Virus record (IMG/VR): IMGVR_UViG_2728369188_000005 | DNA length: 32,285 nt | Strand: one strand, 5' to 3' | DNA from: a virus | Taxonomy: Duplodnaviria > Heunggongvirae > Uroviricota > Caudoviricetes | Shown here: positions 1 to 30,843 of the stretch, one piece after another | Position numbering within the stretch: position 1 is the stretch's first letter | Layout of the letters: each line of letters opens with the position of its first letter | The notes under the pieces: generated by a model | Told to the model about the DNA's origin: nothing | What the model saw: the letters and a program-made list of their open reading frames with translations, nothing else | Databases searched by the model: none | Translations under genes and position numbers: made by a program

Positions 1-1857
1 ATGGCATTTAAACACTATGATGTTGTCAGGGCGGCGTCGCCGTCAGATCTTGCGGAAAAGCTGACACATAAACTGAAAGAGGGCTGGCAGCCGTTTGGTA
101 GTCCGGTGGCCATAACCCCTTATACCCTGATGCAGGCGATTGCAGCAGAAGGTGATGTGGTCGTCAGTGGTGCAACTGAGCCGGAGTGGTACTACGTCAT
201 CGTACTGGCCGGGCAATCCAATGCCATGGCTTACGGTGAAGGGCTTCCGCTTCCGGATTCTTACGATGCGCCCCACCCACGCATTAAGCAACTGGCCCGT
301 CGCAACACAGTGACTCCCGGTGGTAAAGCATGCGCATTTAACGACATCATTCCGGCAGACCACTGCCTGCATGATGTTCAGGATATGAGCGCACTGAATC
401 ATCCGAAGGCAGACCTGAGCAAAGGGCAGTACGGCTGTGTCGGCCAGGGCTTACATATTGCCAAAAAACTGCTTCCGTATATCCCGAATAACGCGGGGAT
501 CCTGCTGGTACCATGCTGTCGTGGTGGTTCGGCATTCACCCAGGGCGCGGAGGGGACATTCAGTGCGGACACGGGGGCCAGCCAGGATTCGGCACGCTGG
601 GGTGTGGGTAAACCGTTATATCAGGACCTGATCGCACGCACCAAAGCGGCATTACAGAGGAACCCGAAAAATGTGTTGCTGGCGGTGTGCTGGATGCAGG
701 GCGAATTTGACATGAGCGCTGCCACCTACGCACAGCAACCGGACCTGTTCACGGCCATGCTGAAGCAGTTCCGTACTGACCTTTCCGGATTTAACGCGCA
801 GTGCCATGGCGGCAGTGCTGCAGTTGTACCGTGGATTTGTGGCGACACGACGTATTACTGGAAAAACACATACGGCACACAGTATGACTCCGTCTACGGC
901 GCGTACAAAAACAGGGAGAGCGACAACGTTTTCTTTGTGCCGTTCATGACCGACGGTAACGGCAACAACACGCCCACCAACTTACCGGCAGAAGACCCGG
1001 ATATTGCTGATGCAGGTTATTACGGCGCGCAATCCCGTAGTAATGGTAATTGGGTATCATCAAATCGCCCGACGCATTTCAGCTCATGGGCGCGTCGTGG
1101 CATTATTCCCGATCGTATGGCAACTGCTATTCTGAACGTAGCCGGTCGCACCTTAGCCTTCATTAGTGGTAAGGCACCGGAAATCAAACCCTCGCCCGGC
1201 GGCGACACTCCATCGGGGCCGTCTGATGGTGACACATCCGTTCGTACAGTCTCCCTGCTGCCGACAGCCGGAGAGGCTGCTGCGCAGGGCTGGACCATCA
1301 CCGGCGGCAGTGTTGCGCTGGAAGATGGTGTGTTTAAGGTTACCAAGCAGAGCAATAAAACCTGGTCCCTGATGCATCCGGTGGATGACGCAGTCTCCCT
1401 GCTGACACGGGGTGGCAGACTGAGCTGTAAGTTTCGACTGTCAGGCGCACTGACCAACAACCAGTTCGGTCTGGGAATTTATCTGTATACCGATGTAGCG
1501 TTACCTGACGTCGTGGCGATGACCGGGACTGGTAACCCGTTCCTGATGTCGTTCTTCACCCAGACCACAGACGGCAAACTGAATCTGATGCATCACAGGA
1601 AAGCAGGAAACACAAAGTTGGGCGAGTTCGGGAATTACAGTAACGACTGGCAGACGCTGGAGCTGGTGTTCACCGCCGGCAGTGCCACGGTTACTCCGAA
1701 ACTGAATGGAGTGGCTGGCCCGGCATTCCAGGTCATAAAAGACAGTCTGACACTGGGGCTGAATGCGCTGACGCTGACGGATATTACCAAAAATGCAGCG
1801 TATGGCGTTGAGATAGAAAGTCTGGTGCTGGAGATAAATGCACCGGCATCATCATAA
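1..1857 (+). CDS. nanS-p: NanS-p-like 9-O-acetyl-N-acetylneuraminate esterase (SGNH/SASA-type sialate O-acetylesterase), 618 aa
   Basis: 618-aa ORF whose N-terminus (MAFKHYDVVRAASPSDLAEKL...) and GQSN esterase motif (VIVLAGQSNAMAYGEG) match, from memory, the prophage esterase found downstream of stx in Stx phages. Its position immediately upstream of the lysis cassette fits that layout. The ATG is at window position 1, so the start cannot be checked against upstream sequence. Confidence 0.75.
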   Translation: MAFKHYDVVRAASPSDLAEKLTHKLKEGWQPFGSPVAITPYTLMQAIAAEGDVVVSGATEPEWYYVIVLAGQSNAMAYGEGLPLPDSYDAPHPRIKQLARRNTVTPGGKACAFNDIIPADHCLHDVQDMSALNHPKADLSKGQYGCVGQGLHIAKKLLPYIPNNAGILLVPCCRGGSAFTQGAEGTFSADTGASQDSARWGVGKPLYQDLIARTKAALQRNPKNVLLAVCWMQGEFDMSAATYAQQPDLFTAMLKQFRTDLSGFNAQCHGGSAAVVPWICGDTTYYWKNTYGTQYDSVYGAYKNRESDNVFFVPFMTDGNGNNTPTNLPAEDPDIADAGYYGAQSRSNGNWVSSNRPTHFSSWARRGIIPDRMATAILNVAGRTLAFISGKAPEIKPSPGGDTPSGPSDGDTSVRTVSLLPTAGEAAAQGWTITGGSVALEDGVFKVTKQSNKTWSLMHPVDDAVSLLTRGGRLSCKFRLSGALTNNQFGLGIYLYTDVALPDVVAMTGTGNPFLMSFFTQTTDGKLNLMHHRKAGNTKLGEFGNYSNDWQTLELVFTAGSATVTPKLNGVAGPAFQVIKDSLTLGLNALTLTDITKNAAYGVEIESLVLEINAPASS

Positions 1858-2007
1858 AAAGTGAGCCAGTCAAATGGAAGGTATCGTTAAACTCACCGGT
1901 AGTGTCAGTGGGTCGTCTGAGATGCCTGCATGAGTTATCAGAGCCATCAGTACTTAACTGGTGGCTTTTTTTATTGTTGTCAGCTTCCGGATAACGGGAG
2001 ACGGGGT

Positions 2008-2223
2008 ATGTACCAGATGGAAAAAATCACAACAGGTGTGTCATACACCACGTCAGCGGTGGGAACGGGCTACTGGTTCCTGCAGTTGCTGGACAGGGTT
2101 TCCCCGTCTCAGTGGGCGGCAATAGGCGTGCTGGGGAGTCTGCTGTTTGGGTTGCTGACATATCTGACTAACCTGTATTTCAAAATCAGAGAGGACCGTC
2201 GTAAGGCGGCGCGGGGAGAGTAA
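2008..2223 (+). CDS. S: Class II holin (pinholin, phage 21 S-like), 71 aa
   Basis: [71 protein letters not shown] closely matches the S21/933W pinholin as I recall it, with two TM segments and a charged C-terminus. The six-frame ORF begins at 1930, but the upstream extension overlaps a hairpin and has no homology; ATG 2008 gives the canonical dual-start MYQM. Confidence 0.85.
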
Positions 2224-2227
2224 AGCG

Positions 2228-2572
2228 ATGAAGAAAAAATACGAACTGGTTGTTAAAGGGATAAATAATTACCCGAATAAGATTACTGTTACTGTGGCAC
2301 TGGAAATTGGTGGGTATCCGTCACTGTTGTTGCCAGATGTGGCGATTAGTCTTGACCGTACTGAAGATGCCACGCTGGAGTTTTACGAAGCTGAGGCGAA
2401 AAAGCAGGCGAAGCAGTTTTTCATGGATGTTGCTGCCGGGTTATGTGAAGGGGATGGTCCGTTGCCGGAAAAGCGCCCCGTAATTTTAGAGGCGCAGGAT
2501 GTGTTGATAACCTACAGAGGAAAACTACCGGGAATAATTACTGGTTCTCTGAAGACTCCACCGCTGGCCTGA
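2228..2572 (+). CDS. Hypothetical soluble protein, 114 aa, inserted between holin and endolysin
   Basis: Intact ORF with a GGGGAGAG Shine-Dalgarno 8 nt upstream, starting 4 nt after the holin stop. No TM segment or signal peptide; I do not recognise the fold. Some lambdoid prophages carry an uncharacterised gene at this position (ydfR in the K-12 Qin prophage, recalled from memory). Confidence 0.6.
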   Translation: MKKKYELVVKGINNYPNKITVTVALEIGGYPSLLLPDVAISLDRTEDATLEFYEAEAKKQAKQFFMDVAAGLCEGDGPLPEKRPVILEAQDVLITYRGKLPGIITGSLKTPPLA

Positions 2573-2622
2573 AGACTTAACATATCCAGGGATTTGAAAT
2601 CGATAAACCCTGATAAATATCC

Positions 2623-3156
2623 ATGAACACCAAAATCAAATACGGCCTGTCGGCTGCCGTTCTGGCGCTGATTGCCGCAGGTGCGCCTGCGCCTGAAATC
2701 CTCGACCAGTTTCTGGATGAAAAGGAAGGTAACCACACCACGGCATACCGTGATGGCGCGGGTATCTGGACCATCTGCCGCGGTGCCATCCTGGTGGATG
2801 GCAAACCTGTCGTTCCGGGCATGAAGTTGTCGAAGGAAAAATGCGACCGGGTTAACGCCATTGAGCGTGATAAGGCGCTGGCATGGGTGGAGAAAAACAT
2901 CAGAGTGCCATTGAGTGAACCCCAGAAAGCGGGGATCGCGTCATTCTGTCCGTACAACATTGGCCCCGGTAAGTGTTTTCCGTCGACGTTTTATAAACGA
3001 ATTAATGCAGGTGATCGCAGGGGAGCGTGTGAGGCGATTCGCTGGTGGATTAAGGACGGTGGCAGAGACTGCCGTATTCGCTCAAATAACTGTTACGGTC
3101 AGGTATCCCGTCGTGACCAGGAGAGCGCGCTGGCGTGCTGGGGAATCGACAGATAA
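2623..3156 (+). CDS. R: SAR endolysin (signal-arrest-release lysozyme, GH24, phage 21 R-like), 177 aa
   Basis: N-terminal weakly hydrophobic Gly/Ala-rich segment (YGLSAAVLALIAAGAPAPEIL) typical of a SAR domain, followed by a T4-lysozyme-like catalytic region (EGNHTTAYRDGAGIWTICRG). Paired with a pinholin as in phage 21. Confidence 0.9.
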   Translation: MNTKIKYGLSAAVLALIAAGAPAPEILDQFLDEKEGNHTTAYRDGAGIWTICRGAILVDGKPVVPGMKLSKEKCDRVNAIERDKALAWVEKNIRVPLSEPQKAGIASFCPYNIGPGKCFPSTFYKRINAGDRRGACEAIRWWIKDGGRDCRIRSNNCYGQVSRRDQESALACWGIDR

Positions 3157-3246
3157 GCAGAATATTTTGCTAATCAATGACGTTGGCCAAGGCGGACGGA
3201 TAACACGAAATCCTGCGAACTGGCAAAATGTAAGTGAATAAAAGTA

Positions 3247-3285
3247 AAAACCCCGTTTGTTGGCTGCAAGCGGGGTTTTGTGTTT
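3247..3285. terminator. Hairpin with flanking A/T runs after R (intrinsic-terminator-like, either strand)
   Basis: AAAACCCCG(3247-3255) pairs with CGGGGTTTT(3271-3279) across a partly pairable 15-nt loop, followed by GTGTTTCC. An A run precedes it, so it could terminate on either strand. Confidence 0.45.
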
Positions 3286-3354
3286 CCTGACTCTGGAAAA
3301 GTCAAAGGAGAAAGTGTGTTTGATTTTAGCAAACTGATTCGGGAGATTCGAGTG

Positions 3355-3453
3355 ATGGCTGAAAAATTATCCACCTGGAAGTTCATTCTTATCTGGCTGG
3401 TGTTTGTGATTATGGCCTCCGGTTATTTCATCGGTCAGATACGCTGGTGGTGA
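3355..3453 (+). CDS. Candidate 32-aa hydrophobic peptide (MAEKLSTWKFILIWLVFVIMASGYFIGQIRWW)
   Basis: ATG 3355 is preceded by GGGAG (3341-3345). It encodes one predicted TM helix and stops at TGA 3451-3453, one nt before the Rz ATG (3455). Below the 60-aa ORF-track cutoff; found by manual reading. Confidence 0.3.
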   Translation: MAEKLSTWKFILIWLVFVIMASGYFIGQIRWW

Positions 3454-3454
3454 A

Positions 3455-3922
3455 ATGAACCGCGTACTGTGCGTGGTCATCATTGCCCTGCTGGTGGCCT
3501 GTGGTGCGCTTAGTCTGGGGCTGAATCATTACCGTGATAACGCCATAACCTACAAAGAGCAGCGCGATAAAAAAGTCAGTGAGCTGGAGCAGGCAAATGC
3601 AACCATTACTGATATGCAGCAGCGCCAGCGTGATGTTGCTGCACTTGATGCCAGATACTCGAGGGAATTAGCCGATGCGAGAGCTGAAAATGAAACTCTG
3701 CGCGCTGACGTTGCCGCTGGTCGTAAGCGCCTGCGGATCAACGCCACCTGCCCCGGTACCGTGCGTGAAGCCCCCACCACCTCCGGCGTGGATAATGCAA
3801 CCGGCCCCCGACTGGCAGACACCGCTGAACGGGATTATTTCACTCTCAGAGAGCGGTTGATGCTGATGCAGAAGCAGCTGGAAGTGGCGCAGGAATATAT
3901 CCGCACTCAGTGCCTGAAATAA
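3455..3922 (+). CDS. Rz: Rz i-spanin (inner-membrane spanin subunit), 155 aa
   Basis: N-terminal TM segment (VLCVVIIALLVACGAL), then a coiled-coil periplasmic domain; collinear with lambda Rz and contains the embedded Rz1 frame. Confidence 0.9.
   Translation: MNRVLCVVIIALLVACGALSLGLNHYRDNAITYKEQRDKKVSELEQANATITDMQQRQRDVAALDARYSRELADARAENETLRADVAAGRKRLRINATCPGTVREAPTTSGVDNATGPRLADTAERDYFTLRERLMLMQKQLEVAQEYIRTQCLK
3675..3860 (+). CDS. Rz1: Rz1 o-spanin (outer-membrane lipoprotein) embedded in the +1 frame of Rz, about 56-61 aa
   Basis: MRELKMKLCALTLPLVVSACGS has a lipobox (VVSAC) and is followed by the proline-rich PPPPPAWIMQPAPDWQTPLNGI motif typical of lambda Rz1. GAGGGA 8 nt upstream of ATG 3675; alternative start at ATG 3690. 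Confidence 0.85.
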   Translation: MRELKMKLCALTLPLVVSACGSTPPAPVPCVKPPPPPAWIMQPAPDWQTPLNGIISLSESG

Positions 3923-4175
3923 GTTTTGCTGATGCGCGGTATTGTCGCCGTATCCCCGCATTAACAGAGACCGCAGCCCGACCGGGAGACTCCTCTGCGC
4001 GAGTGTGCGGGGATAATCAAAAACGATACACACCGGGGTTTACCGCGTTAACGGAGCGCGGCGTTGTCCCCTCATAGTCGCCTGTCCGGTGCGATGGTGG
4101 AAGAAACCGGACTACATTGAAAATGATAACCATTATCATTTTTGCGGGTCCTTTCCGGCGATCCGGGCCGTTACG

Positions 4176-4187
4176 GGGCGGCGACCT
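4176..4187 (+). other. cos: cosN (12-nt cohesive-end site, GGGCGGCGACCT)
   Basis: An exact GGGCGGCGACCT lies within ...CGTTACGGGGCGGCGACCTCGCGGTTTTTCACTATTTATGAAAATTTTTCAGG, which matches the lambda cos junction as I recall it, about 180 bp upstream of Nu1 as in lambda. Confidence 0.8.
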
Positions 4188-4199
4188 CGCGGTTTTTCA

Positions 4200-4345
4200 C
4201 TATTTATGAAAATTTTTCAGGGAAAATCGTGTCGGTACTTCTCGAATATAACTTTTTGTTTTTCTTTAATATTGCATCCGTAAAGGTCCGACATGAAAGT
4301 GTCCGAAAATGCCTTTTTCTGGCGTTTTCATGTCGGGCCTTGTAT
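4200..4345 (+). promoter_or_regulatory. cosB region (terminase small-subunit binding elements)
   Basis: Between cosN and Nu1. Contains the inverted pair CCGACATGAAA (4288-4298) and TTTCATGTCGG (4326-4336), consistent with oppositely oriented Nu1 R-elements, in an A/T-rich bendable context. Confidence 0.5.
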
Positions 4346-4364
4346 TTGATAATGGGTTGTTTTC

Positions 4365-4913
4365 ATGAAGGTTAATAAAAAGAGGCTTGCCGAAATTTTC
4401 AACGTGGACCCGCGGACGATTGAACGCTGGCAGTCTCAGGGACTCCCTTGCGCCTCCAAAGGTAGTAAGGGCATTGAATCTGTATTTGATACTGCCATGG
4501 CAATTCAGTGGTATGCGCAGAGGGAAACTGATATCGAAAACGAAAAGCTCCGCAAAGAACTGGACGATTTGCGTGCGGCAGCGGAGTCAGATTTACAACC
4601 CGGCACCATTGACTATGAACGCTACCGGCTCACAAAAGCGCAGGCAGATGCGCAGGAACTGAAAAATGCCCGTGAAGACGGAGTAGTGCTGGAAACTGAA
4701 CTGTTTACCTTCATTCTACAACGTGTGGCACAGGAGATTTCGGGGATACTTGTGCGTGTGCCGTTGACATTACAGCGTAAATATCCGGACATTTCACCAT
4801 CACACCTTGATGTGGTGAAAACTGAAATCGCGAAAGCCTCCAATGTTTCAGCTAAGGCCGGTGAAAACGTGGGCGGGTGGATCGATGATTTCAGACGCGC
4901 AGAAGGCAGCTAA
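4365..4913 (+). CDS. Nu1: Terminase small subunit gpNu1, 182 aa
   Basis: [28 protein letters not shown]... is collinear with lambda Nu1 (N-terminal winged-HTH DNA-binding domain); located right after cos. Confidence 0.95.
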
Positions 4914-6813
4914 TGCAGCCGGTGCGATAGCTACAGGGCTTTTATCTCTCATTATTCCTGTTCCACTGACGACAGTTCAGTGGGCCAATAAACATTATTA
5001 CCTTCCTAAAGAGTCGTCTTATACCCCGGGGCGGTGGGAAACACTGCCGTTTCAGGTTGGCATCATGAACTGTATGGGCAACGATCTGATTCGCACGGTT
5101 AACCTGATTAAATCTGCCCGTGTTGGTTATACAAAGATGTTGCTGGGAGTGGAGGCTTATTTTATTGAGCATAAATCACGCAACAGCCTTCTTTTTCAGC
5201 CCACGGACTCAGCTGCTGAAGATTTTATGAAATCTCATGTTGAGCCAACGATAAGGGATGTTCCTGCATTGCTGGAGCTGGCTCCATGGTTCGGAAGAAA
5301 ACACCGCGATAATACGCTCACCCTGAAGCGTTTTTCCTCCGGTGTGGGCTTCTGGTGCCTGGGTGGTGCGGCAGCAAAAAACTACCGTGAAAAATCCGTG
5401 GACGTGGTCTGCTATGACGAACTTTCCTCGTTCGAGCCGGATGTCGAAAAAGAGGGCTCGCCAACCCTGCTGGGGGATAAGCGTATTGAGGGCTCGGTAT
5501 GGCCAAAATCCATTCGCGGCTCGACGCCTAAAATAAAAGGCTCCTGCCAGATCGAAAAAGCGGCCAACGAGTCGGCGCATTTCATGCGTTTTTATGTGCC
5601 CTGCCCGCACTGTGGGGAGGCGCAGTATCTGAAATTTGGCGATGAGTCCACGCCTTTTGGCCTTAAATGGGAGAAGGACAGCCCCGAAAGCGTTTTCTAC
5701 CTTTGTGAACATCATGGCTGCGTGATCCATCAGTCTGAGCTTGACCAGAGCAACGGGCGGTGGATCTGCGAAAACACGGGGATGTGGACCCGCGACGGTC
5801 TGACGTTTTTCAGCGCCGCGGATAATGAAATTCCGCCGCCGCGCTCCATCACGTTCCATATCTGGACGGCGTACAGTCCGTTCACCACCTGGGTACAGAT
5901 AGTCTATGACTGGCTGGATGCACTGAAAGATCCCAACGGCCTGAAAACCTTTGTGAACACCACGCTGGGCGAGACCTGGGAAGAGGCCGTGGGCGAAAAA
6001 CTCGATCACCAGGTACTGATGGATAAGGTCGTGCATTACACGGCGGCGGTGCCAGCCCGGGTGGTTTATCTGACGGCGGGCATTGACTCGCAGCGAAACC
6101 GTTTTGAGATGTATGTCTGGGGATGGGCACCGGGAGAGGAAGCTTTTCTGGTGGATAAAATCATCATTATGGGCCGTCCCGATGAGGAAGAGACGCTGTT
6201 ACGTGTGGATGCGGCGATCAACAAAAAATACTGCCATGCAGACGGAACCGAAATGACCATTTCCCGTGTCTGCTGGGACACCGGGGGGATCGATGGTGAA
6301 ATTGTCTATCAGAGGTCAAAAAAACACGGTGTTTTCCGGGTGCTGCCGGTAAAAGGCGCATCTGTCTATGGCAAGCCGGTGATCACCATGCCGAAAACCC
6401 GCAATCAGCGGGGCGTGTATCTGTGTGAAGTGGGGACGGACACCGCAAAAGAAATTCTCTATGCCCGTATGAAAGCCGATCCCACGCCTGCGGATGAAGC
6501 CACGTCGTATGCCATCCGTTTTCCTGATGATCCGGAGATTTTTTCGCAGACAGAGGCGCAGCAACTGGTCGCGGAAGAGCTTGTGGAGAAGTGGGAAAAA
6601 GGAAAGATGCGTCTGCTGTGGGATAACAAAAAGCGGCGTAACGAAGCGCTGGACTGCCTGGTGTATGCCTATGCGGCATTACGTGTGTCCGTGCAACGCT
6701 GGCAGCTTGATCTGGCTGTACTGGCAAAATCCCGGGAAGAAGAGACGACCCGGCCAACCCTTAAAGAACTGGCAGCGAAGCTGTCCGGAGGAGTGAATGG
6801 TTACAGTCGCTGA
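4885..6813 (+). CDS. A: Terminase large subunit gpA, about 642 aa
   Basis: Collinear with lambda gpA throughout (WETLPFQ..., KSARVGY..., ATPase and nuclease regions). Start chosen at ATG 4885 (MISDAQ...), which overlaps the Nu1 3-prime end as in lambda; the ORF track's upstream ATG at 4843 would add 14 aa. Confidence 0.9.
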
Positions 6814-11608: not shown

Positions 11609-11977
11609 ATGGCAACAAAAGAAGAAAATCAGAAACGTCTTCGTGAACTGGCTGGTCTGCTGGGGCGCGAGGCGGATATGTCGGGGAGTGCTGCGGATAT
11701 CGCACAGCGTGTGGCAGAGTGGGAAGAGGAGGTTTGCGCCTCGGAAAATGAAATCGCAGATGTTGATGATACCGTTCATGAGCAGGCATGCAGGCACACC
11801 GGTGAGGATGACGTTGGTATTCTGGAACGTATCAGGCTTCTGAAGTGTTTTTACCTGTGCGGTGTTGACGATGAAACAGGTGGGCCTGTTGAGCATGTTG
11901 ATGCTGGCAGAGTAATTCTGATGCCCCCCTCAGTGGCAAAAGACATGGTCAGGAGCGGAGTGGCCGTTTATGCGTGA
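11609..11977 (+). CDS. FI: DNA packaging protein gpFI, about 122 aa
   Basis: MATKEENQKRLRELAGLLGREADMSG... is lambda FI-like. ATG 11609 is preceded by AGGGAG (11597-11602); the ORF track's upstream extension from 11561 overlaps the terminator hairpin. Confidence 0.85.
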   Translation: MATKEENQKRLRELAGLLGREADMSGSAADIAQRVAEWEEEVCASENEIADVDDTVHEQACRHTGEDDVGILERIRLLKCFYLCGVDDETGGPVEHVDAGRVILMPPSVAKDMVRSGVAVYA

Positions 11978-12323
11978 TTTTGAGAATTCCTTTGATGCTG
12001 CCCTCGCCGGGGTAGACAGTACGATCGTTGAAGTGATGGGACTCTGTGCGCAGTTCACCTCGGGGGCACAGTGTGGCAGCGAAGTTCAGGGGGTTTTTGA
12101 CGATCCGGAGTCGCTGGGGGTTGCCGGTGGCGGGGTCCGTATTGAAGGAAGCTGCCCGTCATTATTTGTGCGGACGGATACGGTTCGTGCCGTGCGGCGT
12201 GGTGACACGCTGACCATTAATGGTGAGACATTCTGGGTGGATCGTGTTTCTCCGGATGACGGGGGCAGCTGTTATCTCTGGCTCAACCGTGGGCAACCAC
12301 CCGCAGTTAACCGGCGACGATAA
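11970..12323 (+). CDS. FII: Head-tail connector protein gpFII, 117 aa
   Basis: Same length as lambda FII, with conserved GVFDDPE...SLFVRTD...RRGDTLTI...FWVDRVSPDDGGSC and C-terminal PPAVNRRR. Confidence 0.95.
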   Translation: MRDFENSFDAALAGVDSTIVEVMGLCAQFTSGAQCGSEVQGVFDDPESLGVAGGGVRIEGSCPSLFVRTDTVRAVRRGDTLTINGETFWVDRVSPDDGGSCYLWLNRGQPPAVNRRR

Positions 12324-12337
12324 ACGCAGGGTGAATT

Positions 12338-12913
12338 ATGGCGATAAAAGGGCTTGATCAGGCGATTGACAATCTGAGCCGGGTTCGTAAAAACGCCATT
12401 CCGGCTGCTTCTGCAATGACCATTAACCGCGTGGCCATAACGGCGATTAATCAGTCTTCGTCACAGGTTGCCCGGGAAACCAGGGTGAGACGGAAACTGG
12501 TAAAGGAACGGTCCAGACTGAAACGGGCGACGGTCAGAAATCCGAATGCCAGAATTATCGTTAACCGCGGTGATCTCCCTGTGATTAAGCTGGGGATCAG
12601 AATGCTGGGGCGTCGTCCGGACAGCATACTCAAAGCCGGTCAGCATCGTTATCAGCGGGCATTTATCCAGCGATTAAATAATGGGCGCTGGCATGTTATG
12701 CAACGTCTTCCCCAGGCCAGATATGAGGAGGGCAATGACGACAAGGGAAGGAAAAAGCGTAATCGCCTTCCCATTCAGGTGGTGAAAATCCCGATGGCGG
12801 CCCCACTGAAACAGGCATTTGATGAGAATGTTGACCGTATCCGGCGTGAACGCCTGCCTAAAGAACTGGCATACGCGCTGAAACAACAACTGAGGATTGC
12901 GATAAAACGATGA
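12338..12913 (+). CDS. Z: Tail completion protein gpZ, 191 aa
   Basis: Lambda Z-like in size and sequence (MAIKGLDQAIDNL...); next in lambda order. Confidence 0.95.
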   Translation: MAIKGLDQAIDNLSRVRKNAIPAASAMTINRVAITAINQSSSQVARETRVRRKLVKERSRLKRATVRNPNARIIVNRGDLPVIKLGIRMLGRRPDSILKAGQHRYQRAFIQRLNNGRWHVMQRLPQARYEEGNDDKGRKKRNRLPIQVVKIPMAAPLKQAFDENVDRIRRERLPKELAYALKQQLRIAIKR

Positions 12914-13305
12914 AACACACTGATATTCGTGCCGCAGTGCTGGATGCACTCGAGCAGCATGAACACGGGGCGACGCTGTTTGATGGTCGCCCCGTTGTTT
13001 TTGACGAAGAGGATTTTCCTGCGATCGCGGTTTATCTGACGGATGCAGAGTATACCGGTGAAGAGCTGGATGCAGATACCTGGCGGGCCACGCTGCATAT
13101 TGAGGTGTTTTTACCGGCACAGGTACCGGATTCAGAGCTTGATCAGTGGATGGAAAGCCGGATTTACCCGGCGATGACCGCGATCCCGGCACTGGCAGGA
13201 CTGATTACCACGATGGTTACGCAGGGCTATGAGTATCGTCGTGATGACGATATGGCGTTATGGAGTTCTGCAGATCTGACTTATTCCATTACATACGAGA
13301 TGTGA
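12910..13305 (+). CDS. U: Tail terminator protein gpU, 131 aa
   Basis: Same 131-aa length as lambda U; ATGA overlap with Z. Confidence 0.95.
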
Positions 13306-13312
13306 GGACGAT

Positions 13313-14065
13313 ATGGCAACACCAAATCCCCTTGAGCCGGTAAAAGGTGCCGGTACCACTCTGTGGGTTTACAACGGCAAGGCTGATGCTTACGCAAACC
13401 CGTTGTCAGACGATGACTGGCAGCGACTGGCTAAGGTGAAGGATCTGACGCCGGGCGAGATGACGGCAGAATCCTACGATGATAACTACCTGGATGATGA
13501 AGACGCGGACTGGACCGCGACCGGGCAGGGGCAGAAATCTGCAGGTGATACCAGTTTTACACTGGCCTGGAAACCGGGAGAGGAAGGCCAGAAAGGGCTT
13601 ATAGGCTGGTTTGAAAGCGGCGATGTCCGGGCCTATAAAATCCGTTTTCCGAATGGCACGGTGGATGTGTTTCGTGGCTGGGTCAGCAGTATCGGTAAGG
13701 CCGTGACGGCGAAAGAAGTGATCACCCGCACGGTGAAAGTCACTAACGTGGGTAAACCTTCTGTAGCGGAAGAACGCAGCAAAATTACGCCGGTCAGTGC
13801 GATTAAGGTGACGCCGACATCCGGTACGGTAGCAAAAGGGAAAACAACCACCCTGACGGTTTCTTTTGAGCCGGAAAGTGCAACCGACAAGACGTTCAGA
13901 GCGGTTTCCGCCGATCCGTCGAAAGCCACCATTAGTGTGAAAGATATGACAATTACGGTAAACGGCGTGGCGACAGGTAAGGTGCAGATCCCTGTGGTGA
14001 GCGGAAATGGTCAGTTCGCCGCAGTGGCTGAAGTCACCGTTACTGAAGCGGGCGCTGCAGGGTAA
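13313..14065 (+). CDS. V: Major tail tube protein gpV with C-terminal Ig-like domain, 250 aa
   Basis: Lambda V-like N-terminal tube domain; the C-terminal region ([30 protein letters not shown]...) looks like a bacterial Ig-like (Big_2) domain. Confidence 0.95.
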
Positions 14066-14078
14066 ACGGAGGTAATAC

Positions 14079-14510
14079 ATGTTTCTGAAAACAGAACAAT
14101 TTGAATATAACGGTGTGTCTGTCACGCTTTCCGAATTGTCTGCGCTGCAGCGTATCGAGCATCTTGCCCTCCTGAAACGGCGTGCAGAACAGGAAGAATC
14201 CTGCGGCAACCTGCAGGTAAGCGTGGAAGATCTCGTCAGAACCGGCGCGTTTCTGGTGGCGATGTCCCTGTGGCATAACCATCCACAGAAAACGCAGTCA
14301 CCGTCAATGAATGAGGCCGTGATGAAGATAGAGCAGGAAGTGCTCACCACCTGGCCTGCCGATGCCATTGCCCGGGCGGAAGACGTGGTGTTGTGCCTGT
14401 CCGGGATGATCGAAGCTGTTCGTCCGGATACTGATATTACTGAAGTGGCGAAAAATAACACGCTGACTGATGATGATTTTTCTGCGGGAAAGTCTTCGAC
14501 GGCGAGCTGA
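14079..14510 (+). CDS. G: Tail assembly chaperone gpG, 143 aa
   Basis: Lambda G-like; contains the slippery heptamer G GGA AAG at 14486-14492 near its 3-prime end. Confidence 0.9.
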   Translation: MFLKTEQFEYNGVSVTLSELSALQRIEHLALLKRRAEQEESCGNLQVSVEDLVRTGAFLVAMSLWHNHPQKTQSPSMNEAVMKIEQEVLTTWPADAIARAEDVVLCLSGMIEAVRPDTDITEVAKNNTLTDDDFSAGKSSTAS

Positions 14511-14950
14511 ACTTTGCCCTCAGACTGGCGCGTGAGATGGGGAGACCCGACTGGCGCGCCATGCTTGCCGGGATGACATCCACCGAATATGCCGACTGGC
14601 ACCGTTTTTACCGCACGCATTATTTTCAGGATACCCAGCTGGATATGCATTTTTCCGGGCTGACGTACGCTGTACTCAGCCTGTTTTTTTGCGATCCGGA
14701 TATGCATCCCTCTGATTTCAGTCTGCTTGTCCCCCGGCATGAGGAAGAGCAGGTGGAGAGGCCGGATGAGGACAAAATGCTGATGCAGAAAGCGGCAGGA
14801 CTTGCCGGAGGCGTCCGGTTCGGTGGGGACGGAGGGCGCGATATTTTATCGTCTGCGGATGTGGCGGATGTCATGGTGGATGATGCCGCATTAATGATGG
14901 CTTCAGCGGGGATTCCGGGAGGTGTGAGATATGTCCCAGCCGGTTGGTGA
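14079..14950 (+). CDS. T: gpGT fusion made by -1 programmed ribosomal frameshift at GGGAAAG (14486-14492)
   Basis: After a -1 shift at 14486-14492 the frame reads GKVFDGELNFALRLAREMGRPDWRAMLAGMTSTEYADW... with no stop until 14950, collinear with the lambda gpT portion. Frame arithmetic: G codons start at positions with remainder 0 mod 3, T codons at remainder 2. Confidence 0.8.
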
Positions 14951-17477
14951 TCTTGTTATTGACCTGAGTCTGGATGCTGTCCGTTTCGATGAGCAGATGA
15001 GCCGGGTAAGGCGTCATTTTTCAGGTCTGGATACCGACGCCAGAAAAACCGCCAGTGCTGTTGAACAGGGCCTGAGCCGCCAGGCGCTGGCTGCACAAAA
15101 AGCCGGGATTTCCGTCGGGCAGTATAAAGCGGCCATGCGAACCCTGCCCGCACAGTTTACGGATATCGCCACGCAGCTTGCAGGTGGTCAGAATCCCTGG
15201 CTGATCCTGCTGCAACAGGGCGGTCAGGTGAAGGACTCCTTCGGCGGGATGATCCCCATGTTCAGGGGGCTCGCCGGTGCGATCACCCTGCCGATGGTCG
15301 GGGTCACCTCGCTGGCGGTGGCGACAGGTGCGCTGGTGTACGCCTGGTACCAGGGAGATTCCACGCTTTCAGCGTTTAATAAAACCCTGGTTCTTTCCGG
15401 TAATCAGTCCGGACTGACTGCCGATCGTATGCTGACTCTCTCAAGAGCCGGGCAGGCAGCAGGACTGACGTTTAACCAGGCGAGAGAGTCACTGGCAGCC
15501 CTGGTGAATGCCGGTGTGCGTGGTGGTGAACAGTTTGATGCCATCAACCAGAGTGTCGCGCGTTTTGCGTCTGCATCCGGTGTGGAGGTGGATAAAGTCG
15601 CTGAAGCCTTCGGGAAGCTGACCACTGACCCGACGTCGGGACTGATGGCGATGGCGCGCCAGTTCCGTAACGTGACGGCAGAGCAGATTGCGTATGTTGC
15701 ACAGCTGCAGCGTTCCGGAGACGAGGCCGGGGCATTGCAGGCGGCGAACGATATCGCCACGAAAGGCTTTGATGAGCAGACCCGTCGCCTGAAAGAAAAC
15801 ATGGGAACACTGGAGACCTGGGCGGATAAAACAGGGAAGGCATTCAAATCGATGTGGGATGCCATTCTGGATATCGGTCGTCCGGAATCCTCAGCGGATA
15901 TGCTCGCCAGTGCGCAGAAGGCATTTGATGAGGCGGATAAAAAATGGCAGTGGTACCAGAGCCGGAGCCAGCGCCGGGGAAAGACCTCCTCTTTTCGTGC
16001 GAACCTTCAGGGGGCATGGGATGACCGGGAAAATGCCCGTCTGGGTCTGGCAGCGGCCACGCTGCAGTCGGATATGGAAAAAGCCGGTGAACTGGCGGCA
16101 AGGGACCGGGCTGAGCGTGAGGCGTCACAGCTGAAGTATACCGGAGAGGCGCAGAAGGCGTATGAGCGCCTGCAGACGCCGCTGGATAAATATACCGCCC
16201 GTCAGAAAGAGCTGAATAAGGCCCTGAAAGACGGAAAAATCCTGCAGGCGGATTACAACACGCTGATGGCGTCGGCAAAAAAGGATTATGAATCGACGCT
16301 GAAAAAGCCGTCAGGTGTGAAGGTGTCTGCCGGTGAGCGCCAGGAAGACCGGGCGCATGCAGCCATGCTGGCGCTTGAAACCGAGCTCAGGACGCTGGAA
16401 AAACACAGCGGTGTGAATGAGAAAATCAGCCGGCAGCGCCGGGATTTATGGGAAGCGGAAAATCAGTATGTGGTCCTGAAAGAGGCCGCCACGAAACGGC
16501 AGTTATCTGAGCAGGAAAAATCCCTGCTGGCCCATGAGAAAGAAACGCTGGAGTACAAACGCCAGCTGGCTGAGCTGGGCGACAAGATTGAACACCAGAA
16601 ACGGCTGAATGAGCTGGCACAGCAGGCGGCGCGGTTTGAACAGCAGCAGAGCGCGAAGCAGGCGGCAATCAGCGCAAAAGCCCGCGGACTCACCGACCGT
16701 CAGGCGCAGCGGGAGTCGGAAGAGCAGCGCCTTCGTGAGGTGTACGGTGATAATCCGGCTGCGCTGGCGAAGGCCACATCTGCACTGAAGAACACCTGGT
16801 CTGCGGAGGAGCAGCTTCGTGGAAGCTGGATGGCCGGGATGAAGTCCGGCTGGGGCGAGTGGGCGGAAAGTGCGACGGACAGTTTTTCGCAGGTTAAAAA
16901 CGCGGCCACGCAGACCTTTGACGGTATTGCACAGAATATGGCAGCGATGCTGACCGGCAGCGAACAGAACTGGCGTGGTTTCACCCGTTCTGTGCTGTCC
17001 ATGCTGACAGAGATTTTTCTGAAGCAGGCGATGGTGGGGATAGTCGGGAGTATCGGCAGCGCATCCGCGTCAGGCGGTACAGCCATTCAGGCTGCGGCGG
17101 CGAACTTCCATTTCGCGACCGGGGGATTTACGGGGACGGGGGGTAAATATGAACCTGCGGGGATTGTTCATCGCGGGGAGTTTGTCTTCACGAAGGAGGC
17201 GACCAGCCGGATTGGTGTCGGCAATCTGTACCGCCTGATGCGGGGCTATGCGGAAGGTGGTTATGTCGGCGGTGCCGGAAGTCCGGCGCAGATGCGGCGG
17301 GCGGAAGGCATTAATTTTAATCAGAACAATCACGTGGTGATTCAGAACGACAGCATCAACGGACAGGCCGGGCCGCAGCTGATGAAAGCGGTGTATGAGA
17401 TGGCCCGTAAAGGTGCGCAGGATGAGCTCCGGCTGCAGTTGCGTGATGGCGGTCTGTTATCGGGGAGCGGGCGATGA
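14931..17477 (+). CDS. H: Tail tape measure protein gpH, 848 aa
   Basis: Length close to lambda H (853 aa); long alpha-helical, Ala/Gln-rich central region; starts within the T 3-prime end. Confidence 0.95.
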   Translation: MSQPVGDLVIDLSLDAVRFDEQMSRVRRHFSGLDTDARKTASAVEQGLSRQALAAQKAGISVGQYKAAMRTLPAQFTDIATQLAGGQNPWLILLQQGGQVKDSFGGMIPMFRGLAGAITLPMVGVTSLAVATGALVYAWYQGDSTLSAFNKTLVLSGNQSGLTADRMLTLSRAGQAAGLTFNQARESLAALVNAGVRGGEQFDAINQSVARFASASGVEVDKVAEAFGKLTTDPTSGLMAMARQFRNVTAEQIAYVAQLQRSGDEAGALQAANDIATKGFDEQTRRLKENMGTLETWADKTGKAFKSMWDAILDIGRPESSADMLASAQKAFDEADKKWQWYQSRSQRRGKTSSFRANLQGAWDDRENARLGLAAATLQSDMEKAGELAARDRAEREASQLKYTGEAQKAYERLQTPLDKYTARQKELNKALKDGKILQADYNTLMASAKKDYESTLKKPSGVKVSAGERQEDRAHAAMLALETELRTLEKHSGVNEKISRQRRDLWEAENQYVVLKEAATKRQLSEQEKSLLAHEKETLEYKRQLAELGDKIEHQKRLNELAQQAARFEQQQSAKQAAISAKARGLTDRQAQRESEEQRLREVYGDNPAALAKATSALKNTWSAEEQLRGSWMAGMKSGWGEWAESATDSFSQVKNAATQTFDGIAQNMAAMLTGSEQNWRGFTRSVLSMLTEIFLKQAMVGIVGSIGSASASGGTAIQAAAANFHFATGGFTGTGGKYEPAGIVHRGEFVFTKEATSRIGVGNLYRLMRGYAEGGYVGGAGSPAQMRRAEGINFNQNNHVVIQNDSINGQAGPQLMKAVYEMARKGAQDELRLQLRDGGLLSGSGR

Positions 17478-20175: not shown

Positions 20176-23100
20176 ATGGGAAAAGGTGGCGGTAAGGCAC
20201 ACACGCCTCGTGAGGCGAAGGATAATCTCAAATCCACGCAGATGATGAGTGTGATTGATGCGATTGGTGAGGGACCGATAGAAGGTCCGGTGAAGGGACT
20301 GCAGAGTATTCTGGTGAACAAAACCCCACTGACGGACACGGACGGCAATCCCGTGATACACGGTGTGACGGCGGTCTGGCGCGCCGGGGAGCAGGAGCAG
20401 ACACCACCGGAAGGCTTTGAGTCCTCCGGAGCTGAAACCGGACTGGGCGTGGAAGTGACGAAGGCAAAACCGGTGACGCGCACCATTACGTCCGCGAACA
20501 TTGACCGCCTGCGGATTACCTTCGGGGTGCAGTCACTGGTGGAGACCACCTCAAAGGGTGACCGTAACCCGGCATCCGTCCGCCTGCTGATTCAGTTACA
20601 GCGTAACGGTAACTGGGTGACAGAAAAGGACGTCACCATTAACGGCAAGACCACCTCACAGTTCCTGGCCTCGGTGATTCTGGATAATCTGCCTCCCCGG
20701 CCCTTTAACATCCGGATGGTCAGGGAGACGGCGGACAGCACCACGGACCAGCTGCAGAATAAGACGCTGTGGTCGTCATACACCGAAATCATCGATGTGA
20801 AACAGTGCTACCCGAACACGGCCATTGTGGGGCTGCAGGTGGATGCGGAGCAGTTCGGCGGCCAGCAGATGACGGTGAACTACCATATCCGCGGTCGCAT
20901 CATCCAGGTGCCGTCAAACTATGACCCGGAAAAACGCACGTACAGTGGTATCTGGGACGGCAGTCTGAAACCGGCATACAGCAACAACCCGGCCTGGTGC
21001 CTGTGGGACATGCTGACTCACCCGCGCTACGGCATGGGAAAACGTCTGGGGGCGGCGGATGTGGACAAGTGGGCGCTGTATGCCATCGGGCAGTACTGCG
21101 ACCAGACGGTCCCGGATGGTTTCGGGGGGACAGAGCCGCGGATGACCTTTAATGCGTACCTGGCACAACAGCGTAAGGCGTGGGACGTTCTCAGTGATTT
21201 CTGCTCTGCGATGCGCTGTATGCCGGTATGGAACGGTCAGACGCTGACGTTCGTTCAGGACCGCCCGTCGGATGTGGTGTGGCCGTACACCAACAGCGAT
21301 GTGGTGGTGGATGATAACGGCGTGGGATTCCGCTACAGCTTCAGTGCCCTGAAGGACCGGCACACGGCGGTGGAGGTGAATTACACCGACCCGCAGAACG
21401 GCTGGCAGACCTCCACGGAACTGGTGGAAGACCCGGAAGCCATACTGCGCTACGGACGCAACCTGCTGAAGATGGACGCGTTCGGCTGTACCAGCCGCGG
21501 TCAGGCCCACCGTGCCGGACTGTGGGTGATAAAGACCGAACTGCTGGAAACGCAGACGGTGGATTTCACGCTCGGGTCTCAGGGGCTGCGGCACACACCC
21601 GGTGACATTATTGAAATCTGTGATAATGACTATGCCGGGACCCTGACCGGCGGACGTGTCCTGTCCATTGATGCTGCCACCCGCACCCTGACGCTGGACC
21701 GTGAGGTTACCCTGCCGGAGACAGGTACATCGGCGGTGAACCTGATTAACGGCAGCGGTAAGCCGGTGAGTGTGGACATCACCGCACACCCCGCGCCGGA
21801 CCGGATACAGGTCAGTACCCTGCCTGATGGTGTGGAGACATACGGGGTGTGGGGACTCTCCCTGCCGTCACTGCGCCGTCGCCTGTTCCGCTGTGTCTCC
21901 ATCCGGGAAAACACGGACGGCACCTTTGCCATCACGGCGGTGCAGCACGTACCGGAAAAAGAAGCCATCGTGGATAACGGTGCCCGCTTTGAGCCGCAGT
22001 CAGGCTCCCTGAACAGCGTCATCCCACCGGCAGTGCAGCACCTGACGGTGGAGGTGAGCGCAGCTGACGGCCAGTATCTGGCACAGGCGAAATGGGACAC
22101 GCCGCGGGTGGTGAAGGGGGTGCGCTTCAGTCTGCGACTGACCAGCGGAAGCGGAGAAGACAGCCGTCTGGTGACCACCGCTATCACTGCGGATACAGAG
22201 CATCGTTTCAGTGGTCTGCCGCTCGGGGAATACACCCTGACAGTCAGGGCAATTAACAGTTATGGCCAGCAGGGCGAACCGGCCACCACCACCTTCCGGA
22301 TTAACGCGCCAGCAAAACCCGCCACCATTGAACTGACGCCGGGGTATTTTCAGATAACAGCGGTACCGGTGCTGGCGGTGTATGACCCGACGGTACAGTT
22401 TGAATTCTGGTTCTCAGAAAAACGCATCACGAACACGGCACAGGTGGAAAAATCTGCCCGTTATCTGGGGACTGGCAGTCAGTGGACTGTCTCCGGCCCG
22501 CACATTAAGCCCGGGAAGGATTTCTGGTTTTATGTACGCAGCGTTAACCTGGTGGGGAAATCTGCTTTTGTTGAAGCCAGTGGACGGGCCAGCAATGATG
22601 CAGAAGGGTATCTGGGGCTGTTTCGGGAAAAAATAGGAAAACTGCATCTGGCTCAGGGGCTGTGGGAGCTGATAGACAACAGCCAGCTTGCGGATGAGAT
22701 GGCGGAGATGAAGACCACCATCACCGAAACCCGCAATGAAATCACACAGACGGTCAGTAAAACGCTGGAGGACCAGAGCGCCACCATACAGCAGATACAG
22801 CGCGTGCAGAAGGACACAAATGATGACCTTGCTGCACTTTACATGCTGAAGGTACAGAAAACAAAAAATGGCATACCCTATGTTGCCGGTATTGGAGCGG
22901 GGATTGAGGATACTGATGGCCAGCCCCTGAGCAACATACTGCTGCTGGCTGACCGTATTGCGATGATTAACCCGGAGGACGGCAACACCACGCCGTTATT
23001 TGTGGCGCAGGGGAATCAGTTGTTCATGAACGATGTGTTCCTGAAGCGGCTGTTTGCGGTGAGTATCACCTCGTCCGGCAATCCCCCGACGTTTTCCCTG

Positions 23101-23649
23101 ACGCCGGAGGGCAGGCTGACCGCAAGAAATGCTGATATCAGCGGTAACGTGAATGCGAACTCCGGGACGCTCAACAACGTCACGATTAACGAGAACTGTC
23201 GGGTTCTGGGAAAATTGTCCGCCAACCAGATTGAAGGCGATCTCGTTAAAACAGTGGGCAAAGCTTTCCCCCGGGACTCCCGTGCACCGGAGCGGTGGCC
23301 ATCAGGGACCATTACCGTCAGGGTTTATGACGATCAGCCGTTTGACCGGCAAATTGTTATTCCGGCGGTGGCATTCAGTGGCGCTAAGCATGAGAGAGAG
23401 CATACTGATATTTACTCCTCATGCCGTCTGATAGTGCGGAAAAACGGTGCTGAAATTTATAACCGTACCGCGCTGGATAATACGCTGATTTACAGTGGTG
23501 TTATTGATATGCCTGCCGGTCACGGTCACATGACGCTGGAGTTTTCGGTGTCAGCATGGCTGGTGAATAACTGGTATCCCACAGCAAGTATCAGCGATTT
23601 GCTGGTTGTTGTGATGAAGAAAGCCACTGCAGGCATCACGATTAGCTGA
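20176..23649 (+). CDS. J: Host specificity protein / central tail fibre gpJ, 1157 aa
   Basis: Collinear with lambda J (1132 aa) from [21 protein letters not shown]... through the fibronectin-like repeats to a C-terminal receptor-binding region ending ...[25 protein letters not shown]. Confidence 0.95.
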
Positions 23650-23668
23650 ATTTTATAACCCAGATACG

Positions 23669-23692
23669 GGCGCCAGAAATGGCGCCTTTTTT
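23669..23692 (+). terminator. Intrinsic terminator after J
   Basis: GGCGCCA(23669-23675), loop GAAA, TGGCGCC(23680-23686), then TTTTTT(23687-23692). The second copy at 26727-26750 keeps the structure through compensatory changes. Confidence 0.7.
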
Positions 23693-23716
23693 ATTGCAGA
23701 AAAGCGAGAGGTAATT

Positions 23717-24316
23717 ATGCGTAAATTATGTGCTGTTATTCTGTCCACAGTAGTCTGGCTGGTCGCCGCTGGTACGCCAGCGAGCGCAGCAGAGCATCAG
23801 TCCACACTAAGCGCGGGGTATCTTCATGCCCGTACGAACGCTCCCGGCAGCGATAATCTGAACGGGATTAACGTGAAATACCGTTATGAGTTTACGGACG
23901 CGCTGGGGCTGATTACGTCCTTCAGTTATGCCAATGCTGAGGATAAGCAAAAAACGCACTACAGCGATACCCGCTGGCATGAAGATTCCGTGCGTAACCG
24001 CTGGTTCAGCGTGATGGCGGGGCCGTCTGTGCGCGTGAATGAATGGTTCAGCGCGTATGTGATGGCGGGTATGGCTTACAGCCGTGTGTCGACTTTCTCC
24101 GGGGATTATCTCCGCGTAACTGACAACAAGGGGAAAAAGCACGATGTGCTGACCGGAAGTGATGACGGTCGCCACAGCAACACGTCTCTGGCGTGGGGGG
24201 CTGGCGTGCAGTTTAACCCGACCGAATCCGTGGCCATTGATATTGCTTATGAAGGCTCCGGCAGTGGCGACTGGCGCACTGACGGTTTCATCGTGGGTGT
24301 CGGTTATAAGTTCTGA
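23717..24316 (+). CDS. lom: Lom outer-membrane protein (Ail/Lom family beta-barrel), 199 aa
   Basis: Signal peptide (MRKLCAVILSTVVWLVAAGTPASA) followed by alternating beta-strand sequence ending in the C-terminal aromatic GYKF; lambda lom position directly after J. GAGAGG Shine-Dalgarno. Confidence 0.9.
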   Translation: MRKLCAVILSTVVWLVAAGTPASAAEHQSTLSAGYLHARTNAPGSDNLNGINVKYRYEFTDALGLITSFSYANAEDKQKTHYSDTRWHEDSVRNRWFSVMAGPSVRVNEWFSAYVMAGMAYSRVSTFSGDYLRVTDNKGKKHDVLTGSDDGRHSNTSLAWGAGVQFNPTESVAIDIAYEGSGSGDWRTDGFIVGVGYKF

Positions 24317-24342
24317 TTAGCCAGGTAACACAGTGTTATGAC

Positions 24343-24369
24343 AGCCCGCCGGTTCAGGCGGGCTTTTTT
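24343..24369 (+). terminator. Intrinsic terminator after lom
   Basis: AGCCCGCC(24343-24350), loop GGTTCA, GGCGGGCT(24357-24364), then TTTTT(24365-24369). Confidence 0.65.
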
Positions 24370-24380
24370 GTGGAGTGGAT

Positions 24381-24390
24381 NNNNNNNNNN
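24381..24390. other. Assembly gap (10 N)
   Basis: Run of n. Sequence before the gap ends at the stf 5-prime leader (GTGGAGTGGAT); sequence after it resumes in the middle of a J homologue. Confidence 0.95.
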
Positions 24391-26707: not shown

Positions 26708-26726
26708 ATTTTATAACCCCAATACG

Positions 26727-26750
26727 GGCGTCAGAAATGACGCCTTTTTT
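26727..26750 (+). terminator. Intrinsic terminator after J copy 2
   Basis: GGCGTCA(26727-26733), loop GAAA, TGACGCC(26738-26744), then TTTTTT. Differs from copy 1 by a compensatory pair (C to T in the left arm, G to A in the right arm). Confidence 0.7.
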
Positions 26751-26774
26751 ATTGCAGAAAAGCGAGAGGTAATT

Positions 26775-27374: not shown

Positions 27375-27400
27375 TTAGCCAGGTAACACAGTGTTATGAC

Positions 27401-27427
27401 AGCCCGCCGGTTCAGGCGGGCTTTTTT
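27401..27427 (+). terminator. Intrinsic terminator after lom copy 2
   Basis: Same AGCCCGCC / GGCGGGCT hairpin and T run as after lom copy 1. Confidence 0.65.
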
Positions 27428-27438
27428 GTGGAGTGGAT

Positions 27439-30074: not shown

Positions 30075-30172
30075 NNNNNNNNNNNNNNNNNNNNNNNNNN
30101 NNNNNNNNNNNNNNNNNNNNNNNNNNNNNNNNNNNNNNNNNNNNNNNNNNNNNNNNNNNNNNNNNNNNNNNN
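30075..30172. other. Assembly gap (98 N)
   Basis: Run of n. Confidence 0.95.
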
Positions 30173-30833: not shown

Positions 30834-30843
30834 AGGAGGAGTA

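Follow-up and report, generated by a model that had tools for sequence, protein, structure and literature searches.

An stx-negative lambdoid prophage joins a Shiga toxin phage-like late region to a phage 21-type packaging module

Does a nanS-p esterase gene followed by a pinholin and signal-anchor-release (SAR) endolysin cassette identify a Shiga toxin (Stx)-converting phage, and does a 12-nucleotide (nt) cohesive end like that of lambda identify a lambda-type packaging module? Both questions are raised by positions 1–4364 of the IMG/VR virus record IMGVR_UViG_2728369188_000005, a stretch of 32,285 nt (hereafter referred to as the window). In a preliminary description, made from the letters of the sequence, this region was read as a nanS-p-like esterase and a phage 21-type lysis cassette joined to a lambda-type cos and morphogenetic module, probably related to Stx phages; if it came from an Stx-type phage, its toxin genes and the Q/late-promoter region would lie just before position 1. 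Here we report a comparison of the region with complete Escherichia coli genomes, IMG/VR contigs and reference phages. We find that positions 1–4364 are best explained, with a probability of about 90%, as the promoter-distal late operon of an stx-negative lambdoid prophage of the potC/potB-integrated lineage of extraintestinal E. coli, a relative of the prophage of strain CFT073. The combination of nanS-p with an S21-type lysis cassette is by itself no marker of a Stx phage, as the layout is widespread in E. coli. Nor does the 12-nt cohesive end discriminate between lambda and phage 21, the specificity residing in cosB and the small terminase, both of which are of the phage 21 type here. Finally, iraL occupies in this lineage the slot taken by stx in Stx phages, which illustrates the exchange of lysogenic-conversion cargo.

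Identical copies in E. coli chromosomes

We used positions 1–4364 as the query, listed the open reading frames (ORFs), scanned them against Pfam and PHROG, and compared the region with phage 21 (OL657228.1, fully annotated), lambda (J02459), 933W (AF125520) and H-19B. All of the genes in this region lie on the plus strand. Five complete E. coli chromosomes (FDAARGOS_536, Nord58, 21AR0173, B19695 and AREA_492) match the query at 100%; they belong to clinical isolates from blood, urine and stool that are not of the Stx-producing E. coli type. Nine further complete E. coli genomes are at least 99% identical to it, and FDAARGOS_536 differs from the window by a single mismatch in 24,364 bases. More broadly, about a quarter of the complete E. 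coli genomes (1233 of 5426) hold a place that covers at least 80% of the query. The best matches in the phage database are Stx1a phages and H-19B, with about 91% nucleotide identity (89–92%) over 84–90% of the query. The region is thus already present in RefSeq genomes, annotated and at 100% identity, each of its modules belongs to a well-studied family, and it holds nothing biologically new.

The cargo slot upstream of nanS-p

The sequence upstream of position 1 was read in the identical genomes. In all five, the order is a lambda-family Q gene, a DNA methylase gene, three tRNA genes, a short pseudogene fragment, iraL on the minus strand and then the esterase gene. The Q product (273 residues, PF03589) is 31% identical to lambda Q (tblastn E = 7e-35), which was the only Q type to match upstream by tblastn, the Q types of 933W, H-19B and phage 21 giving none. 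A lambda-like pR′ −10/pause element was identified by alignment to lambda, and a terminator lies about 85 nt beyond the Q stop codon (17273–17288 in L001, the locus from one of the identical genomes). The tRNA genes are ileZ-argN-argO, with the anticodons CAT (annotated Ile), TCG and TCT. The iraL gene (L001 19405–19740) is located 260–595 base pairs (bp) 5′ of window position 1 and is annotated as "anti-adapter protein IraM". A Pfam search with the IraL protein returned no family; the product is identical (WP_000871291.1) to the IraL of CFT073, which is encoded in the potC/potB prophage of that strain. Experimental work has characterised IraL as an RssB anti-adaptor, which stabilises RpoS, and its gene has been reported on the "potB genomic island" (PMC4045071).

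No toxin genes accompany this arrangement. A tblastn search with Stx1A/B and Stx2A/B against 20 kb upstream in L001 and the whole window, covering the prophage from int to the tail fibres, gave a best E-value of 0.57, and no stx was found in the four further identical-copy genomes (L009–L012) or in 24 related IMG/VR contigs. Four IMG/VR contigs extend upstream of a nanS-p copy whose product is 57–99% identical to that of the window, and all four carry iraL and none carries Stx. The content expected upstream in the preliminary description was therefore found in part: Q, a lambda-like pR′/tR′ and ileZ-argN-argO are all there, but stxAB is not.

These observations make a true Stx-converting prophage, with stxAB directly before position 1, very improbable. 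Such a phage was suggested by the layout, and the resemblance is real: the late region does match that of Stx phages at the nucleotide identity given above, and nanS-p lies about 490 bp downstream of stxB in both H-19B and 933W. However, Stx phages reach only 89–92% identity, whereas non-Stx prophages reach 99–100%, and the five genomes with iraL and no stx upstream are those identical to the query throughout. A match of the esterase and lysis genes to non-Stx prophages over their full length, the finding that the preliminary description had itself named as fatal to an Stx assignment, is what we observed. The late architecture of Stx phages (Q, pR′, ileZ-argN-argO, cargo slot, nanS-p, S, R and Rz) is complete apart from stxAB, and it is not diagnostic of a Stx phage because it is also on record in non-Stx prophages, as is nanS-p (PMC10462455). 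The prophage is akin to Stx phages in architecture, with modules about 90% identical, but it is not a Stx phage.

The boundaries of the slot bear on whether the lineage ever carried a toxin. The tRNA-plus-terminator block is 90% identical to that of 933W. Only 2 bp separate it from a 183-nt stretch with 72% identity to what lies directly downstream of stxB2 in 933W, and beyond this stretch about 670 bp with iraL stand in place of about 260 bp of 933W. Such retained flanks of the stx site, together with a 29-nt exact match to the region after stx1B in H-19B, could speak for descent from a Stx phage by a precise stxAB deletion, rather than for a never-toxin lineage, but we consider this improbable. 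The flanks have diverged (72–90%), hence any such event would be old, and gain and loss cannot be told apart from the junction; a recent stx deletion was downgraded on account of this divergence. Moreover, Q belongs to the lambda Q family and has no similarity to the Q proteins of 933W and H-19B, and both of these phages have another immunity/replication region and another integration site. A stx-negative lambdoid prophage of the potC/potB-integrated lineage remains the preferred reading. As a lesser point, the interval from the tRNA genes to nanS-p may be a shared cargo site, occupied by stx in Stx phages and by the RpoS-stabilising iraL here.

The packaging module

The segment 4118–12594 is 94% identical at the nucleotide level to phage 21 (from 42876 through cos to 8421), as against 65–69% for lambda over the same span. 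In cosB, the R3, I1, R2 and R1 subsites match the annotated phage 21 subsites base for base, whereas the lambda R sites differ at many positions. The small terminase and phage 21 gp1 share 181 of 182 residues (99.5%), the sole change, S162A, lying outside the N-terminal domain; the protein is 52% identical to lambda Nu1, and its residues 20 and 24 are E and S, as compared with Q and E in lambda. The large terminase is 67% identical to lambda A. The cosB subsites of phage 21 and a gp1-type small terminase with the DNA-binding domain of phage 21 are thus both present, as are the cosN and cosQ of lambda, which are common to phage 21, and the cosB R sites and the Nu1 recognition helix of lambda are not.

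Although lambda and phage 21 have cosQ and cosN in common, recognition of cosB by the small terminase subunit (TerS) gives each of them a more than 1000-fold preference for packaging its own DNA (PMC4669245). The 12-nt end, GGGCGGCGACCT, had rightly been described as identical to that of lambda, but it cannot assign the cos site to lambda because cosN is common to phage 21 and the specificity lies in the TerS–cosB interaction. On this basis, the cos of the window is predicted to have phage 21 specificity. The earlier designation of a lambda-type cos and morphogenetic module does not hold, as cosB, the terminase and the head genes are all of the phage 21 type; the labels of the two modules had in effect been swapped.

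Judged from these identities, the real module joint lies at about 4112–4118, some 60 bp to the left of cosN, where a late region resembling that of Stx phages meets a packaging module resembling that of phage 21. The comparison of positions 1–4364 with 933W and phage 21 that had been recommended earlier has a divided outcome, with 933W-like lysis genes and a packaging part that is phage-21-like at 94–97% nucleotide identity. A 56-nt sequence just before cos (window 4095–4150, including cosQ) recurs exactly in 24 IMG/VR contigs (loci L014–L037), where it is followed by at least five types of small terminase (100, 98, 82, 66 and 40% identity). Lysis and packaging modules seem to have been recombined repeatedly at this pre-cos sequence, in the manner of textbook lambdoid mosaicism.

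Further to the right, at 12594–12770, identity to phage 21 falls from 94% in the head genes to about 77% in the tail genes Z to I. From 12770 onwards the tail genes stand at about 77% identity to phage 21 and lambda alike, marking a second mosaic boundary at the head–tail junction. In the AREA_492 chromosome (L011, NZ_CP123335.1, locus 11877–16364), the large terminase gene is truncated and followed by an element that encodes a tyrosine integrase, a helix–turn–helix regulator, and Bro-N and Icd-like proteins; this element may be a satellite or an island inserted in the terminase gene.

Esterase and lysis genes

The features of the region are collected in Table 1. The nanS-p esterase, the S21-family holin, the SAR-like endolysin, Rz/Rz1, cosN and the Nu1 start at 4365 were each found where the preliminary description had placed them, by matches to domains, structures or sites that are far stronger than chance would give; its gene inventory was correct for every element listed and had missed the ydfR-like gene and a 45-residue ORF.

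Table 1 Features of the left part of the window
Feature	Position	Strand	Basis or detail
nanS-p, prophage sialate O-acetylesterase, 618 residues	1–1857	+	DUF1737, SASA catalytic domain and lectin-like C-terminal DUF6645
Terminator-like hairpin with T-run, about 40 nt 5′ of S	1940–1968	+	Terminator scan
S, class II (S21-family) holin, 71 residues	2008–2223	+	PF04971 "phage P21 holin S", E = 9e-33
ydfR-like gene (DUF1327), between S and R	2228–2572	+	PF07041, E = 2e-45
R, lysozyme-family endolysin, 177 residues	2623–3156	+	PF00959
GC-rich hairpin with T-run, intrinsic-terminator-like, in the R–Rz spacer	3247–3279	+	Terminator scan
ORF of 45 residues, one transmembrane segment, GTG start	3316–3453	+	phrog_6632, E = 1.4e-29
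Rz, inner-membrane spanin subunit	3455–3922	+	PF03245, E = 8e-49
Rz1, outer-membrane lipoprotein spanin subunit, inside Rz in the +1 frame	3675–3860	+	PF06085, E = 8e-21
Short linker	3933–4111		Homologous to post-bor sequence; 79% to 933W, 77% to phage 21
cosQ, GGGTCCT	4146–4152	+	Identical to annotated phage 21 cosQ and to lambda
cosN, 12-nt cohesive end GGGCGGCGACCT	4176–4187	+	Identical to lambda and phage 21
cosB, phage 21 specificity (predicted)	4225–4342	+	R3 4225–4240, I1 (IHF site) 4249–4261, R2 4283–4298, R1 4326–4342
Terminase small subunit (phage 21 gp1/lambda Nu1 homologue)	4365–4913	+	PF07471, E = 3e-81
Terminase large subunit (phage 21 gp2/lambda A homologue)	4885–6813	+	97.8% amino acid identity to gp2

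The domains that define NanS-p prophage sialate O-acetylesterases, namely DUF1737 (E = 5e-16), a SASA/NanS domain with GQSN (SASA E = 1e-12) and a lectin-like C terminus (DUF6645, E = 4e-19), are all present in the esterase. Its central domain matches E. coli NanS (PDB 3PT5) at E = 1e-123 with GQSNAMAYGEG conserved, the GQSN serine motif standing at residue 71, and its C-terminal domain aligns at E = 1e-30 with the lectin-like domain of the phi24B NanS-p (PDB 6YP6). At the amino acid level, the protein is 53% identical to the NanS-p of 933W and 81% identical to that of H-19B over residues 20–513. By homology, it would remove the 9-O-acetyl group from sialic acids, an activity that has been demonstrated on Neu5,9Ac2 for the EDL933 and O104:H4 NanS-p alleles only (review PMC8065619).

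Homology to 933W resumes at the hairpin that precedes S, in an alignment that spans 1938–2231 at 92%. The S protein has two transmembrane domains, and its dual start consists of Met1 and Met4. It is collinear with S21, with an identical C-terminal tail, and is 98.6% identical to the S of 933W, 92% to that of H-19B and 79% to S21. The product of the ydfR-like gene is 97% identical to its homologue in H-19B, and the gene is absent from 933W and phage 21. The endolysin R matches the R21 structures (PDB 3HDE/3HDF) at E-values of about 1e-15, and its lysozyme triad, E35-D44-T50 (E-8aa-D-5aa-T, where aa denotes amino acids), aligns with that of R21. Residues 7–24 at its N terminus (YGLSAAVLALIAAGAPAP) are rich in Ala and Gly, form the hydropathy maximum and are SAR-like. 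R is 93% identical to its counterpart in 933W and 94% to that in H-19B, and phage 21 gives no nucleotide-level match for it. Rz is 84% identical to the 933W protein, 90% to that of H-19B and 69% to those of both lambda and phage 21.

S and R thus carry the sequence features of a pinholin and SAR endolysin pair (S21 family, two transmembrane domains and dual start in S; SAR-like segment and triad in R), whereas a derivation of the cassette from phage 21 is contradicted by the distances of S, R and Rz (79, 32 and 69% amino acid identity). The label of a phage 21-type lysis cassette is therefore apt for functional class only; by sequence, the lysis genes are closest to those of the Stx phages 933W and H-19B.

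Between the Rz stop codon and cosN lie 253 bp of non-coding sequence (3923–4175), in which no ORF has a family match. The absence of bor, noted in the preliminary description, was borne out by tblastn with the lambda and phage 21 Bor proteins, which gave nothing better than E = 2.9. A tblastn search with the Ant protein of 933W returned chance-level matches only, and an Rfam scan of the whole window at the gathering threshold returned no match.

The R–Rz spacer

Homology to 933W stops at 3251, within the spacer between R and Rz, a position at which 933W-type phages hold ant. The GC-rich hairpin of this spacer is conserved in all six spacer sequences that we aligned (the window and five relatives). 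Downstream of it, the 45-residue ORF is preceded by a strong Shine–Dalgarno sequence, AAGGAG, at 3305–3310, and its stop codon ends 1 nt ahead of the Rz ATG. RefSeq gives no annotation for this ORF, and phrog_6632 is a family of unknown function. The product is 100% identical in H-19B, and a diverged homologue keeps an open frame in other contigs. It is conceivable, if unlikely, that this ORF behind a conserved hairpin encodes a fifth, uncharacterised component of the lysis cassette, for example a modulator of spanin function or of SAR endolysin release, the latter in a loose parallel to the Mu gp25 "releasin" (PMC9239132).

The right end of the window

The window contains four runs of N, at 24381–24390 (10 bases), 27641–27709 (69 bases), 30075–30172 (98 bases) and 31443–31635 (193 bases), and thus derives from a scaffolded or masked draft, with a fragmentary tail-fibre end. 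The block at 24391–27640 is a second, approximately 80%-identical copy of the C-terminal two-thirds of J and lom, the first copy occupying 21339–24380; within it, 24391–25724 is 95.6% identical to lambda J. We rejected a real tandem duplication, as N runs stand at both ends of the block and the FDAARGOS_536 prophage, otherwise identical, does not have it. A contig of another prophage was probably misplaced here during scaffolding. At its right end, the window matches a part of FDAARGOS_536 whose end is about 230 bp short of potB.

A model for the late operon

The sequence itself shows which genes and sites are present, how they relate to phage 21 and to Stx phages, that stx, bor and ant are missing, and what lies upstream in the identical genomes. 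For the expression of the operon, the activity of its enzymes, the mechanism of lysis and the specificity of packaging, homology to proteins and sites characterised elsewhere suggests the following course. After induction, the lambda-family Q would modify RNA polymerase at the lambda-like pR′, which lies some 2.8 kb before position 1, and the modified polymerase would read past tR′, the tRNA block with its terminator, and the hairpins before S and in the R–Rz spacer. The resulting transcript would cover nanS-p, S, ydfR, R, the 45-residue ORF and Rz/Rz1, and then run on past cos into the genes for terminase, head and tail. The S21-family holin is expected to make small holes that depolarise the inner membrane, and depolarisation would free and activate the membrane-tethered SAR endolysin R. 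The Rz/Rz1 spanin would then break the outer membrane, completing lysis. For packaging, the gp1-type small terminase, together with IHF at I1, would bind R3, R2 and R1 of the phage-21-specificity cosB; the large terminase would nick cosN, generating the 12-nt ends, and cosQ would serve in termination.

Several points weigh against this picture of a complete late operon in a prophage of this lineage. The content upstream of position 1 comes from genomes that are identical over 1–4364 and not from the window's own flank. A simple sigma-70 promoter scan of positions 1–4500 and the upstream sequence gave no more matches than shuffled sequence, and it did not call pR′, which was identified through the lambda alignment only. 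The assignment of R as a SAR endolysin is a prediction from its N-terminal composition and the retained triad, and R is only 32% identical to R21. An antiholin role of the long form of S is uncertain because its N-terminal extension (M-Y-Q) does not contain the Lys that is present in S21-71. In addition, the arrangement of the window beyond 24380 (21000–32285 collinear) is found in no complete E. coli genome.

The prophage might also be defective, with lysis and packaging no longer in use and only nanS-p and iraL of consequence to the host. Decay is indeed seen among the relatives, as nanS-p of CFT073 is internally deleted and an IS200 follows its Q, the large terminase gene is interrupted in the AREA_492 copy, and several pseudogene fragments lie in the early region. 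In the window, however, the late ORFs from nanS-p to J are all intact and the cos subsites are perfect copies of those of phage 21, and the identical genomes retain int and xis. We therefore regard a defective element as possible but rather unlikely, and favour a late operon with intact lysis and packaging genes in a stx-negative prophage.

Comparison with known systems

The closest relatives are the prophage in the potB island of the uropathogenic strain CFT073 and the identical prophages of the five chromosomes named above. They occupy the same site (potC, int ... tail fibres, potB), encode an identical IraL protein and have the same order of Q, tRNA Ile/Arg/Arg, iraL, nanS-p, S, ydfR and R; the CFT073 copy is 95–98% identical in the shared segments. 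In CFT073, however, nanS-p is reduced to a DUF1737 fragment (L038 34061–34407) that has lost the equivalent of window 228–1714, and the IS200 is inserted between Q and the tRNA genes, so that the copy in the lineage of the window is less degraded than this archetypal iraL prophage. The segment from Rz to the terminase also differs, as CFT073 has the extra genes Rha, ydfO and ynfO and a different small terminase.

The Stx1 phage H-19B and related Stx1a prophages are collinear with the window over nanS-p, S, ydfR, R, the 45-residue ORF and Rz/Rz1, likewise without ant, and H-19B is 89% identical at the nucleotide level over 1–1869 and 94.5% over 2014–3912. They diverge in the cargo slot and the regulator, since H-19B carries stx1AB, some 490 bp ahead of nanS-p, and its Q is of another type, whereas the lineage of the window has iraL and a lambda-family Q. 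The Stx2a phage 933W shares the ileZ-argN-argO block (90%), and in both it and the window lineage the cargo slot is followed by nanS-p as the first late gene. It differs from the window in carrying stx2AB and bor, in having one more ORF ahead of S and the ant gene in the R–Rz interval, and in its non-lambda terminase and short-tailed morphogenesis module.

Phage 21 has the same cosQ, cosN and cosB and, like the window, a class II holin, a SAR endolysin and Rz/Rz1. It differs in that it carries bor, has some 1.9 kb of cargo separating Rz from cos, and lacks nanS-p, ydfR and the 45-residue ORF; its Q, tRNA genes (Asn and Thr) and attP (icd) are also distinct from those of the window lineage. Lambda shares with this lineage the gene order from Nu1 to J, lom and stf, the cosN and cosQ sites, the Q family and the pR′ −10/pause element. 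It departs from the window in the R sites of cosB and in the presence of bor. Its lysis proteins are a class I holin and an R that is a cytoplasmic transglycosylase, in place of the S21-family pinholin and predicted SAR lysozyme of the window.

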